From an uncultured Bacilli bacterium (GTDB taxonomy: Bacteria; Bacillota_I; Bacilli_A; RF39; UBA660), in NCBI GenBank assembly GCA_944332475.1, contig CALVKA010000003.1, positions 163,257 to 227,256 of the forward strand: a DNA stretch of 64,000 nucleotides. Reading direction: 5' to 3'. A program made the position numbers and the translations under genes. Position 1 is the first letter of the stretch, and every line of letters begins with the position of its first letter. Under the pieces are notes generated by a model. It was not told the DNA's origin. It worked only from the letters and a program-made list of their open reading frames with translations, and did no database searches. Below, in pieces: positions 3,132 to 6,006 of the stretch.

Positions 3132-4221
3132 CTTTTACCTCCATTTTATAATAATTTATAAAATCCATAAATCCTTCTATAAATATTGTTTTTTCATTAC
3201 TTGTCAGCTCAAAATATTCAAACTCTGGCAAATTACCATGGCTATATAAATTGATTAATTTAATTAATTCTTTAGTATATTCTTTCTGTGGTAAACAATC
3301 TTCATATTTTTTATAGCCAAAATAATTTGCTGTCTTTTCTAATAAAATCCTAAACATATTAAAATTTATCTTTTCTAAACTATCATTATTGATAGCTTCA
3401 TTTATTTTTTTTACTAAAATTAAATGATATCCAAAAGGAGAATCACCCTTTTCTTCAAGACAATATTTGTATTTATTTTTTATTAAGACATAGGAATTAA
3501 ATTTAATATAGTTCTCTCTTTTTAGTAAATTGTAAATTGCATTATAAAATAATGCATGATGTGTTGTAATTAAAATACTGGGTCTATCTTCTTCTGTTAA
3601 TTCATTTATCCTTTCAATCAGCTCATATATTTTAACGGCTATATTCATTATTCTTATATCATCAATAGAAGATACAGGGTCATCAATTACAATATATTTA
3701 ATATTGTCAAAAATATCAGTTGATCTATTTTCTTTTTCTTCTTTTAGTTCGTAAATCATGGAATCTATAAATGTGTAAAATATACTCCATATAAAAAGAC
3801 TTTCTTCTGCTTTTGAAATTTTAATATCATAATCATATCCATCTTTAGTTTTAGCACTGAACTCTATTATACCACTTTCTAAATCCATTGATGGTTCAAT
3901 AATATCATCGCAAAATAACTTGAAGTTATCTTCAATTGCTTTTTCTAATCCCTGTTCAGTTATGAACTTAACTATCCAAGAAATGCTATTAATATTCAAA
4001 AATTGCGAATCATTTACCCAGGAAAATTCATCTTGAAATATCGAATTAAAACATAAAACTTTATCTTCCTGTTTCTCCGTAAACATTCTAGAAATTCTTG
4101 TTTTTCCGGTTCCATTGAAAGCATATATCAGATCAACTTTTATTTTTGTACTGAGACTATTAAAATCTTTATTAATTTCATTATATATTTGCTCTATATC
4201 TTCACTTTCTACTTTCTTCAT
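3124..4221 (-). CDS. prrC: PrrC-like anticodon nuclease (ABC-type ATPase N-domain plus C-terminal ACNase domain)
   Basis: Walker A AFNGTGKTRIS near the N-terminus. ABC-like Walker B/D-loop YIVIDDPVSSIDD. C-terminal R-x32-N-x3-H arrangement (MFRILLEK...LINLYSHGN) with a ~37-aa tail, mirroring the Arg320/Asn352/His356 arrangement of E. coli PrrC. Located between hsdS and hsdR exactly as in the E. coli prr locus. Confidence 0.6.
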   Translation of the reverse strand: MKKVESEDIEQIYNEINKDFNSLSTKIKVDLIYAFNGTGKTRISRMFTEKQEDKVLCFNSIFQDEFSWVNDSQFLNINSISWIVKFITEQGLEKAIEDNFKLFCDDIIEPSMDLESGIIEFSAKTKDGYDYDIKISKAEESLFIWSIFYTFIDSMIYELKEEKENRSTDIFDNIKYIVIDDPVSSIDDIRIMNIAVKIYELIERINELTEEDRPSILITTHHALFYNAIYNLLKRENYIKFNSYVLIKNKYKYCLEEKGDSPFGYHLILVKKINEAINNDSLEKINFNMFRILLEKTANYFGYKKYEDCLPQKEYTKELIKLINLYSHGNLPEFEYFELTSNEKTIFIEGFMDFINYYKMEVKDE

Positions 4222-4789
4222 TTTTTAATTCCTCAAAACTCAATAATTTATCTCTATAATATTCATATTGTTTTTTTCTTAATTCTATTTCAGCTGGTAA
4301 TCCTTCAGAAATACCATCAATTAACTTATTAAATTTGTCTAAAATACAAACAATCTTTTCTTGCTCTTCTAAACAAGGTAAATATATTTCAAAATTTTCA
4401 GTTATTGGTAGTGATATTTGTGGCATTGATCCCATTTGACTTCCCATACTTCTAAAATAATTAATATTATTTTTTAAATAGTAATATAGATACTTTACTG
4501 TAATTTGATTTTCACATGTATATGCCCACATTTCATTTTTAAACGTAAATGATTTATCATAGTAAATAAAATCTATTAGTCCTCTTGATTGGACAATAAC
4601 ACAAGGATAGTCAATAATATTAGCTTTTGGGATTTCTTCTATATTGGTGTTTACTGCAGTTTGTCCGCCAGCAAATATTTTTATATTACCATCCTTCTTT
4701 TCAATTTCTTTCATTTTACCAGCTGTTATTGAAGTTCCTTTTACTCTTTTAAAAGCATCACTTAATTTAACTTTTGTATATCCAAACAC
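4202..4789 (-). CDS. HsdS-related half subunit (single target-recognition domain plus C-terminal conserved region), GTG start
   Basis: C-terminus LPAEIELRKKQYEYYRDKLLSFEEL resembles the C-terminal conserved region of the upstream full HsdS (LPAEKELRQQQYEYYRDMLLTFAD). Start is GTG at 4787-4789. The in-frame upstream extension has no stop through the TGTC repeat. Confidence 0.7.
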   Translation of the reverse strand: MFGYTKVKLSDAFKRVKGTSITAGKMKEIEKKDGNIKIFAGGQTAVNTNIEEIPKANIIDYPCVIVQSRGLIDFIYYDKSFTFKNEMWAYTCENQITVKYLYYYLKNNINYFRSMGSQMGSMPQISLPITENFEIYLPCLEEQEKIVCILDKFNKLIDGISEGLPAEIELRKKQYEYYRDKLLSFEELKNEESRK

Positions 4790-4806
4790 ATATTGTAAAA
4801 GCCTAA

Positions 4807-6006
4807 TTATTGCTTGTCTGTCTGTCTGTCTGTCTGTCTGTCTGTCTGTAAAATTATCTCATTGGTGTCGGCAAAGGTCAATAGCATATCGCGATAATAT
4901 TCATATTGTTGTTGTCTTAATTCTTTTTCTGCAGGAAGTCCTATTCCGAAATCATAACATATAGTATCAAATTTATCCAATACTTCAACTATTCTGTTTT
5001 GTATTTCTATTGGTGGAACAGATATTGTAAATTCTTTCATCCACGTTGAATTCAAATTGGCCTTTGGTGAATTTTGTGTTTTTGCTTTTACTTGTTCCTT
5101 AAATAAATTACTAGTCATCCAATATTTTAAATACTTATTTGATATAACATTGCTGTCTTTTATTCTAGCGAATCCAACACTCACAAAAATACATATTGGC
5201 TCATCTAAATTATATATAACTGGATGGCCCAAGTTTGAACCAACTCTCACAAATAAAATATCGCCTTTTTTTGGCTTTGCATTTGACGTACAAGTATTAA
5301 ATTCTTCTTCTGAAATATATTTTACATTGCTCAAATCCAAATAGTCTTTTGAAATATTAATAGAAGATAAAAACTTTATGCCAGAGGAAACATAATTGGG
5401 TGTATATGTTAATCCTAAGTATAAATCGGCAATATCTTTTAGTTTGTATTTTTTGTATGTTTTAGGTTGTAATAATTTTCCACGCCAAAACTCGTATTGA
5501 CTCTGTCTCGCTTCTAGCTCCGCTTCTAGCTCCGCTTCTAGCTCGCCAAATTTATCTAGTATTCTAACTATTTCTTCTTGTACTTCTAAAGGAGGAATGG
5601 GAATTTTTATTCTATTAAAATCATTTATAGATAGAAAAGGTTGACTTCCTTTTACATATTGTTCTAAATGTAAAGTTGTCAATAAATGATATAAATATCG
5701 AGAATTTAAGTTGTTGTTCTTTGGTTTACATATTGTTCCGTTATAAGTTACATAATGCTTTCCCTGACCCCAAATTACTTTACCGGCTGAACCTATATGC
5801 CCTACAATTGGAGTGTTTTCATTATTATATGTAGACGTATTTCCTACAATTCCATAGCAACCATAAACGGGATATTGACCGCCATCTGTTGGAATGCTAT
5901 TTCCTTTACCATAGTATAAATCGGTTACATCTTTAATTTCTTTATATTCAACTCCATTGGGACATAATTCTTTTATTAAATCTTTTATTCTACTCATGAT
6001 AATCAA
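4807..6006 (-). CDS. hsdS: Type I R-M specificity subunit HsdS (two TRDs, central and C-terminal conserved regions)
   Basis: Central region contains ELEAELEAELEAR. C-terminal conserved block LPAEKELRQQQYEYYRDML. Overlaps hsdM stop by 17 nt; ends in the SSR-encoded TDRQ repeats. Confidence 0.85.
   Translation of the reverse strand: MIIMSRIKDLIKELCPNGVEYKEIKDVTDLYYGKGNSIPTDGGQYPVYGCYGIVGNTSTYNNENTPIVGHIGSAGKVIWGQGKHYVTYNGTICKPKNNNLNSRYLYHLLTTLHLEQYVKGSQPFLSINDFNRIKIPIPPLEVQEEIVRILDKFGELEAELEAELEARQSQYEFWRGKLLQPKTYKKYKLKDIADLYLGLTYTPNYVSSGIKFLSSINISKDYLDLSNVKYISEEEFNTCTSNAKPKKGDILFVRVGSNLGHPVIYNLDEPICIFVSVGFARIKDSNVISNKYLKYWMTSNLFKEQVKAKTQNSPKANLNSTWMKEFTISVPPIEIQNRIVEVLDKFDTICYDFGIGLPAEKELRQQQYEYYRDMLLTFADTNEIILQTDRQTDRQTDKQ
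4815..4846. repeat. (TGTC)8 tetranucleotide simple-sequence repeat, (GACA)8 on the coding strand, at the 3' end of hsdS
   Basis: Eight perfect TGTC units read directly at 4815-4846; encodes the TDRQ-TDRQ-TDKQ tail of HsdS. Confidence 0.95.
5509..5544. repeat. 12-bp direct repeat x3 (cgcttctagctc) encoding ELEA x3 in the hsdS central conserved region
   Basis: Three perfect tandem copies read at 5509-5520, 5521-5532 and 5533-5544. Confidence 0.9.

Follow-up and report, generated by a model that had tools for sequence, protein, structure and literature searches.

A tetranucleotide repeat in a Type I restriction-modification operon of an uncultured Bacilli bacterium and its probable role in switching between two- and three-domain specificity subunits

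Why should the gene for the specificity subunit of a restriction-modification enzyme end in a run of tetranucleotide repeats and be followed, almost at once and in another reading frame, by what looks like half of a second such gene? The question is raised by a locus at one edge of a 64,000-nucleotide stretch of DNA from an uncultured Bacilli bacterium (hereafter the window, by which we mean the whole stretch). As judged from its predicted products the locus is a Type I restriction-modification (R-M) operon, hsdM–hsdS–prrC–orf148–hsdR, with all genes on the minus strand and with overlapping junctions. The original prediction, made from the DNA letters, was that the repeat at the 3′ end of hsdS is prone to slippage and toggles the locus between a stand-alone HsdS and one fused to an additional target recognition domain (TRD). 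Our analysis leads us to regard this as the probable explanation: the gene would be a phase-variable "extended" hsdS in which the length of a GACA tract sets whether the specificity subunit has two TRDs or three.

Read directly on the minus strand, hsdS carries (GACA)8 at its 3′ end (window 4815..4846). The eight perfect units occupy 4846..4815 on the coding strand, where they are preceded by ACA, and the sequence around them is ...GAGATAATTTTACA(GACA)8AGCAATAATTAGGCTTTTACAATATGTG.... Tandem Repeats Finder and translation agree with this reading, and thus the eight units and the TDRQ repeats that they encode, as had been described, are indeed there. In the eight-unit state the hsdS frame, which we call S1, consists of TRD1, a first conserved region (CR1), TRD2a and a second conserved region (CR2), after which the tract encodes a TDRQ tail; the 3′ end, GACA units included, translates to ...LQTDRQTDRQTDKQ, and the open reading frame (ORF) ends ...LLTFADTNEIILQTDRQTDRQTDKQ at a TAA codon (4809..4807). 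Pfam recognizes two stretches of Methylase_S in S1 (E 3.3e-32). The gene had originally been drawn from 6006 to 4807; its stop at 4807 stands, but the start is most likely ATG 5997 (MSRIKDL..., 396 aa) rather than TTG 6006, because the gene call in a related contig (L002, see below) and the N-termini of homologues agree on it. Downstream lies the half-hsdS, S2 (TRD2b–CR3), which had been taken for one TRD plus a conserved region and which does comprise a single Methylase_S domain (E 1.8e-17) followed by a conserved helix. It is in a different frame from S1, as stated earlier, but the gap between the S1 stop and the GTG of S2 is 17 nt and not 18.

The relationship between the two frames is what gives the tract its potential to act as a switch. 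Frame arithmetic by hand places the codon starts of hsdS at ≡0 modulo 3 and those of the downstream frame at ≡1, and therefore the gain of one unit or the loss of two would fuse both ORFs, as had been proposed. The half-hsdS frame, when read upstream (...TDRQTDRQTDRQAIIRLLQYVFGYTKVKL...), is open through the tract, which likewise bears out the earlier reading. The third frame, reached with 7 or 10 units (that is, by a change of −1 or +2), terminates immediately at TAG 4805..4803, so that two of the three classes of tract length yield a clean two-domain HsdS. The repeat is placed directly after CR2 and ahead of a linker and TRD2b, and the length of its unit is not divisible by 3. When units of 1, 2, 4, 5, 7 and 8 nt were scanned, it was the sole tract of a non-triplet unit in the 64 kb besides two A9 runs, and 100 dinucleotide-preserving shuffles gave an expectation of 0 matches to a 20-nt (TGTC)5 probe.

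Does the tract vary in nature? Public assemblies were queried with the exact HsdM, PrrC, S1 and S2 protein sequences, which yielded European Nucleotide Archive contigs from gut-type metagenomes in two projects (BRZ_* and ONAT22-1_*); seven public contigs encode an identical HsdM protein. The tract has eight units in the window and in L002, L133 and L134, nine units in L001, L003, L004, L005 and L006, and eleven units in L136. By blastn, the window differs from the nine-unit contigs L001 (over 13,562 bp), L004 (8,661 bp) and L006 (4,319 bp) by one 4-nt gap and 0 mismatches, and the eight-unit contig L134 is identical to it (100% over 1,916 bp). Two further contigs have diverged from the window, L002 (eight units) by 13 substitutions and L003 (nine units) by 40. 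Because the eight-unit state recurs on the second background represented by L002, the tract must have undergone two changes or more in a time that saw almost no substitutions. Thus, with the tract as the sole difference among otherwise identical haplotypes and with the eight-unit state on two backgrounds, the comparison of these sequences indicates that the GACA tract mutates much faster than the DNA that flanks it. According to the literature, variation at about 1e-6 is found even in a tetranucleotide tract with just three units, and the rate is higher in longer tracts.

The gene calls follow the unit number as the frame arithmetic predicts. A single HsdS of 599 aa, with three Methylase_S stretches, is called in all of the nine-unit contigs that span the whole gene (L006 ends inside it), whereas the calls in the eight-unit and eleven-unit contigs are S1 and a 195-aa S2. 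In the eight-unit contigs L002, L133 and L134, S1 is called as 396 aa, in accord with the earlier statement that the present count gives a stand-alone HsdS, and S2 corresponds in the nine-unit alleles to residues ~405-599 of the extended HsdS. Natural alleles of 8, 9 and 11 units on identical or near-identical DNA thus bear out the proposed toggle at the level of the DNA. At the level of species the nearest genomes are L073, labeled "uncultured Bacilli bacterium," and L029, labeled "uncultured Mycoplasmataceae bacterium"; in L073 the locus is about 94-97% identical, with 16 units and in the fused frame. The number of repeats in related hsdS loci, which the original prediction had asked to be compared for invariance, is therefore variable. 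The eleven-unit contig (L136, a BRZ_NA contig) differs in another respect as well: its S1 is 424 aa long and matches the window only in patches, while its S2 is identical, from which it appears that TRD modules are exchanged within the population besides the slippage of the tract. A search of Joint Genome Institute metagenomes with the exact flanks and a variable gap gave no match. We also note that a contig from the k-mer-based Logan assemblies (L131) begins, at its positions 1..28, within the GACA tract; because assemblies tend to break at the repeat, tract counts from contigs of this kind are unusable.

Fused proteins of the predicted kind exist elsewhere. When the hypothetical product of a one-unit gain was used as a query, it matched dozens of natural proteins of ~600 aa with 99% coverage, one of them from Faecalicatena orotica (P0048). 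Such fused homologues, with three Methylase_S stretches, are common; in them the TDRQ spacer varies in length and the linker is unchanged. The junction of P0003, for example, is ...TDRQTDRQTELSAIKLIQYVFGY, and that of P0007 is the same minus one TDRQ; the junctions of P0009 and P0004 read ...RQTDRQTDRQTGLIRLLQYVYGF and ...RQTGLIRLLQYVYGF, respectively. In other fused proteins the spacer is built from other units, such as PEAGSRK repeated 3.5 times (P0002, a 7-nt unit), TERNG (a 5-nt unit) and AEQSR (a 5-nt unit). One protein cluster at 90% identity mixes members of 590-607 aa with members of 393-396 aa. A search centered on the junction, meanwhile, returned mostly stand-alone S2 ORFs of ~200 aa, and none of its matches bore the name of Fusobacterium or Mannheimia. 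Finally, P0001 is a natural TRD1–CR1–TRD2b–CR3 protein whose halves are, by eye, about 80% identical to TRD1–CR1 and TRD2b–CR3 of the window, and the existence of such a protein indicates that TRD1 and TRD2b form a viable pair.

The linker that joins the tract to TRD2b is read in the fused frame only, and its first codons, ATA-ATT-AGG, carry overlapping stops in the two other frames, TAA (4809..4807) and TAG (4805..4803). To see how widely this arrangement occurs, we searched a single genome of each species for a degenerate form of the linker, I(R/K)LxQYV(F/Y)G(Y/F). There were at least 120 matches, of which 110 among those listed have a TRD-sized ORF downstream, and the counts given here refer to these 110. 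As the linker motif itself retrieved the 110 loci, its breadth is no independent test of its conservation, but the same linker is present in the fused proteins of the whole-protein search, which did not depend on the motif scan. A repeat tract lies within 30 nt 5′ of the linker in 102 of the 110 loci. Tracts of the GACA type account for 73 of these 102, with 3 to 31 units, and the unit types number 15 altogether, the 14 others being AG, G, GAGCA, AACGG, AACAG, GCAA, CGAA, ATCGA, AGAAG, ACTC, CCAGA and three heptamers. No unit has a length that is a multiple of 3; all are of 1, 2, 4, 5 or 7 nt. At loci in which the upstream conserved helix could be placed, the three frame states stand at 22 (fused) to 21 to 23, near-equal thirds such as are expected of a freely switching tract sampled at random phase. 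In 97% of the loci each of the two off-frames meets a stop no more than 6 nt from the base at which the linker isoleucine codon begins, as compared with 33% per frame at control positions, and the stops are embedded in xTA-ATT-A(A/G)G. The immediate stops in both off-frames therefore imply that the unfused product is a clean two-TRD HsdS with a short tail.

The codons of the linker bear on whether the fused frame is used. Positions such as Leu2 and Gly8 draw on many synonymous codons but keep their amino acid, which points to selection at the level of the protein on a segment that, lying upstream of the putative GTG start, is read in the fused frame only, and so to translation of that frame. 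The linker codons are also far more uniform at synonymous sites than the rest of the same ORFs (ATT, 0.90 against 0.56; CAG, 0.75 against 0.40; GTG, 0.51 against 0.17). The constraint imposed by the stop codons accounts for part of this uniformity at synonymous sites, and recombination or recent spread may lie behind the remainder. Most of the surveyed loci come from host-associated anaerobes, among them Lachnospiraceae, Oscillospiraceae, Faecalibacterium prausnitzii, Gemmiger, Dialister, Megasphaera, Peptoniphilus, Solobacterium, BVAB1, Treponema, Fibrobacter, Succinivibrio and Desulfovibrio.

An arrangement of this kind has been described. In section 3.4 of their paper, Atack et al. (FASEB J 2019/2020, PMC7383803) defined "extended phase-variable hsdS genes," exemplified by Mannheimia haemolytica, with a G[n] tract, and Fusobacterium nucleatum, with AAGAC[n]; in M. 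haemolytica the two-TRD form gives the motif CAACN4GT and the extended form CAACN5TC. The window locus has, by its predicted products, the defining features of that class: three TRDs that can be read in one frame, a repeat with a non-triplet unit, and alleles both in and out of frame. The genes of the two pathogens and that of the window share the layout TRD1–TRD2a–repeat–TRD2b with a unit indivisible by 3, the dependence of a two-TRD or a three-TRD HsdS on tract length, the annotation of out-of-frame alleles as S1 plus S2, and the shuffling of TRD alleles among strains. The window differs from both in its unit (GACA), in its host (an uncultured low-GC Bacillota of the gut) and in the presence of prrC in the locus. 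Two of the fused homologues (P0097 and P0120) carry QDKTRQ, as (AAGAC)3 would encode, beside the same linker, which is only suggestive of kinship with the F. nucleatum AAGAC[n] genes.

How, then, would the switch operate? Slipped-strand mispairing would add or remove GACA units between TRD2a–CR2 and the third module, TRD2b–CR3, reversibly and within a clone. When the number is a multiple of 3 (6, 9, 12 and so on), the ribosome would read through the tract, which would then encode a hydrophilic TDRQ spacer, and translation would continue via the conserved linker helix into TRD2b to give a three-TRD HsdS, of 599 aa in the nine-unit state. With any other number, translation would halt at one or the other of the two stops in the first linker codons, leaving a two-TRD HsdS composed of TRD1 and TRD2a. 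Both forms would be active. By analogy with M. haemolytica, the neighbor of TRD1 in the extended subunit is most likely TRD2b–CR3 in place of TRD2a–CR2. Outside their conserved C-terminal part TRD2a and TRD2b are unrelated, and they should therefore read different half-sites. Accordingly arranged, the methyltransferase and the restriction enzyme would alternate between two bipartite recognition sequences with the half-site of TRD1 in common; we infer such a change in methylation specificity because the two forms of the M. haemolytica subunit methylate different motifs and because P0001 pairs TRD1 with TRD2b. If the altered methylation were also to change the expression of a set of genes, the locus would be a phasevarion, the kind of system that the original prediction had in mind. 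In an AlphaFold2 model of the 599-aa protein the helices of CR1 (137-176) and CR3 (544-586) are continuous, that of CR2 is broken at GIGLP (330-349 and 355-378), and the linker forms a helix (391-406). This modeled layout would fit pairing of CR1 with CR3, though Foldseek superpositions are poor.

Several points weigh against so complete a picture. The step in which TRD2b replaces TRD2a draws on one published analogy, and the likeness to the F. nucleatum and M. haemolytica genes was judged by their published layout. The AlphaFold model of the 599-aa protein has a pLDDT of 77.5 and a pTM of 0.59 and leaves the pairing of the helices unsettled, and although the best matches found by Foldseek in the Protein Data Bank are HsdS chains (1yf2, 3okg and 7bst), they have TM-scores of 0.26/0.35 and a root-mean-square deviation of ~22 Å. 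Lastly, each allele was read from the consensus of a metagenome assembly, and the samples differ, so that switching within a clone is a presumption drawn from comparisons between them.

The evidence must also be set against other explanations. One is that in the unfused states S2 is made separately, as the original prediction supposed, by re-initiation at the GTG that lies 13-17 nt past the off-frame stops, and that its homodimer adds a palindromic specificity, so that the locus alternates between two enzymes and one. The GTG of the window is in frame and lies 17 nt (or 13 nt) past the two stops, GTG encodes the valine of QYV in 51% of the surveyed loci as compared with 17% of valines elsewhere in the same ORFs, hundreds of stand-alone S2 ORFs of ~195-205 aa are annotated by gene callers, and dimers of truncated HsdS are known from NgoAV (PMC7383803). 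On the other hand, half of the family uses here a valine codon that is not a start codon, a triplet resembling a Shine-Dalgarno sequence stands at a usable distance in just 28 of the 110 loci (the window has only AGG, 12 nt upstream), and the protein sequence is conserved upstream of the GTG as well. Moreover, GTG is the least conserved of the linker codons in a linker whose every codon is unusually uniform, and its enrichment need not signify a start. For these reasons we have down-rated the conserved GTG as a dedicated internal start and consider separate synthesis of S2 unlikely. Less likely still is a simple ON/OFF switch, in which the three-TRD fusion is misfolded or inactive and a count that is a multiple of 3 turns off the enzyme built on TRD1 and TRD2a. 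The AlphaFold model of the fusion does lack the canonical geometry of two TRDs, but an OFF switch has no need of an intact 195-aa module, and more than 100 species preserve the protein sequence of TRD2b, CR3 and the fused-frame linker; furthermore, the extended form of the M. haemolytica subunit is active, with a new motif (PMC7383803), and a natural protein that joins TRD1 to TRD2b exists in P0001.

Could the repeat instead be incidental, with S2 serving as a silent donor cassette for the recombinational shuffling of TRDs, as in the SpnD39III and Mycoplasma pulmonis hsdS shufflons? TRDs evidently do move among alleles, as seen in L136 with its different S1 and unchanged S2 and in the recombination of TRD1 with TRD2b in P0001. 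But S2 is in direct orientation, and a repeat occupies the same junction in the great majority of the surveyed loci. No significant inverted repeats were found in 2500..8500, nor was a recombinase found among the neighboring genes (those for the CBS and Fic proteins, PrrC, orf148 and HsdR) by Pfam and the L001 gene calls, and on these grounds an inversion shufflon is excluded. We regard a role as donor cassette as very improbable. It is harder yet to credit that a frameshift has made the gene a pseudogene or that the low-complexity tract was misassembled. Repeats can be miscounted in short-read assembly, and the k-mer-based contig L131 does break inside the tract; however, the tract (32-44 nt) is shorter than one read, different assemblies recover eight units (three contigs and the window) and nine units (five contigs), the immediate stops in both off-frames are conserved, and all three modules are intact. 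We therefore return to an extended hsdS toggled by its GACA tract as the probable explanation. A broader proposal, toward which we are inclined to be skeptical but not dismissive, is that the non-triplet tract, the overlapping off-frame stops, the linker resembling an N-terminal helix and TRD2b–CR3 constitute a single module that has spread horizontally to become the main repeat-based toggle of Type I specificity in gut, rumen, oral and vaginal anaerobes of several phyla. Its repeat unit would have been replaced many times while the junction stayed fixed, and TRD2b–CR3 would displace TRD2a–CR2 in the same polypeptide.

Comparison with other switching systems helps to place the locus. In NgoAV of Neisseria gonorrhoeae, as in the window, a tract (poly-G) lying in the hsdS locus alters the architecture of the subunit, and hence its specificity, rather than switching off the enzyme. 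The NgoAV tract, however, lies between TRD1 and TRD2 and governs the choice between a full-length HsdS and a truncated, dimerizing HsdS with one TRD, whereas the tract of the window follows TRD2a–CR2 and governs the choice between two TRDs and three, the unfused product keeping two. The inverting shufflons (SpnD39III/ivr of Streptococcus pneumoniae and hsd of M. pulmonis) resemble the window in being Type I loci with spare TRD modules and several specificities per operon, but they use inverted repeats and a site-specific recombinase; the window has neither, and its extra module is in direct orientation and is reached by a change of frame. The Type IC enzymes EcoR124I and EcoR124II have two and three copies, respectively, of TAEL in the central conserved region, and the TAEL unit sets the length of the spacer. 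The window has at what we take to be the equivalent place in CR1 an in-frame repeat of a 12-nt unit, which translates as GELEAELEAELEARQ, and homologues carry (TAEL)2-3 or (ELE[AT])3. The repeat of the window (5509..5544) is of one length throughout L001-L006; (ELEA)3 is a side feature and not the switch. In the prr locus of Escherichia coli CT196 the order of the EcoprrI genes is hsdM–hsdS–prrC–hsdR. The window likewise has a gene of the PrrC family between hsdS and hsdR, but it has in addition a 148-aa ORF, and its hsdS is extended and repeat-controlled. By its sequence the window locus is, then, a prr-type Type I locus with a repeat-controlled hsdS, and we know of no report of such an hsdS in a prr locus.

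In the searchable literature, the term "extended phase-variable hsdS" is used by Atack et al. (PMC7383803) alone. Genes for HsdS under repeat control are not dealt with in a 2025 preprint on epigenetic phase variation in the gut, and the literature that could be searched contains no mention of the conserved linker, of the double off-frame stops, or of how widely the family occurs in gut, rumen and oral anaerobes and how its repeat units (15 types) have turned over. The linker, the built-in stops and the breadth of the family are modest additions and no new principle, the layout having been described in 2019.

The features of the operon are collected in Table 1. The HsdM protein scores 720 bits against the NCBIfam model TIGR00497 (hsdM), for which the cut-off is 243, and the hsdM stop and the hsdS start overlap by 8 nt (ATGAGTAG). 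The stop of S2 overlaps the start of prrC by 20 nt, and prrC, whose product is predicted to belong to the PrrC family, has a GAGGA Shine-Dalgarno sequence of its own. The translation of hsdS would end 20 nt inside prrC in the fused state and about 590 nt upstream in the unfused state. A polar effect of the Rho type on prrC and hsdR when hsdS is unfused was weighed and judged unlikely, given that the coding strand is poor in C (as reflected in its GC skew) and that prrC has its own Shine-Dalgarno sequence. The product of orf148 has no match in Pfam, PADLOC or NCBIfam, and the ORF is found in every related contig. The HsdR protein is complete in L001, where it has 1022 aa and the Pfam domains HSDR_N, ResIII and EcoR124_C.

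Table 1. Features of the R-M operon and its hsdS repeat (window coordinates)
Feature	Coordinates	Strand	Evidence
hsdM, Type I N6-adenine methyltransferase subunit, 522 aa	5990..7558	minus	Pfam N6_Mtase (E 1.6e-113) and HsdM_N
hsdS, S1 frame in the eight-unit state, 396 aa; predicted TRD1–CR1–TRD2a–CR2–(TDRQ)n tail; stop TAA 4809..4807	4807..5997	minus	translation
In-frame 12-nt repeat, three copies, (ELEA)3, in central conserved helix CR1	5509..5544	minus	Tandem Repeats Finder: period 12, 3.0 copies, 100% matches
Repeat tract, ACA + (GACA)8 on coding strand	4815..4849	minus	Tandem Repeats Finder: period 4, 8.8 copies, 100% matches
Conserved linker AIIRLLQYVFGY, read in fused frame only	4778..4813	minus	sequence and translation
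S2, half-hsdS, TRD2b–CR3, 195 aa from GTG	4202..4789	minus	one Pfam Methylase_S domain, E 1.8e-17
prrC-like gene, 365 aa, predicted ATPase/anticodon nuclease	3124..4221	minus	PADLOC PrrC, E 1e-83 (residues 12-361); Pfam AAA_13
orf148, 148 aa	2685..3131	minus	ORF list; overlaps prrC end by 8 nt and hsdR start by 4 nt
hsdR, restriction subunit, ATG 2688, leaves the window at its edge, 895 open codons	1..2688	minus	translation without stops

These results have practical consequences. The hsdS/half-hsdS pair is best annotated as one phase-variable gene, not as a gene and a fragment. Strains that are one 4-nt unit apart may differ in methylome and in their barriers to the entry of phages and plasmids. 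The survey suggests, in addition, that specificity subunits with three domains and under repeat control occur commonly beyond the two pathogens, among commensal anaerobes such as Faecalibacterium, Lachnospiraceae, Dialister, Megasphaera and Treponema, which is of relevance to metagenomic binning by methylation, to strain-level heterogeneity of the microbiome, and to how a three-TRD HsdS picks two domains.

Finally, we note some features of the surrounding DNA. Upstream of hsdM are genes for a CBS-domain protein (7593..8279, minus strand) and a Fic/DOC protein (8309..9139, minus strand), the latter of which matches the PADLOC candidate defense family PDC-S72 (E 6e-81); these two genes (7593..9139), near that for tRNA-His (10093..10168), may form a small defense island. 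The R-M island is adjoined by genes for the spore-coat proteins CotJB and CotJC (a Mn-catalase) at 10211..11312 (plus strand), as identified by the Pfam labels of the L001 gene calls, and their presence suggests a spore-forming low-GC member of the Bacillota, though the closest bins are labeled "Bacilli" and "Mycoplasmataceae." The two A9 runs mentioned above are at 51408..51416, which is 19-27 nt upstream of the start of an ORF at 50172..51389 (minus strand), and at 48802..48810, just 3′ of an ORF at 48815..49759 (minus strand). Elsewhere, at 52001..53083 (minus strand), is a gene for a 360-aa protein with an N-terminal membrane anchor and a long region rich in Pro, Ala, Val and Thr. It contains 99-nt (2.9 copies) and 45-nt tandem repeats at 52278..52609 (AVEQAPVMPTVEP...) and, from its predicted sequence, is probably a surface or cell-wall-spanning protein with a variable number of repeats.

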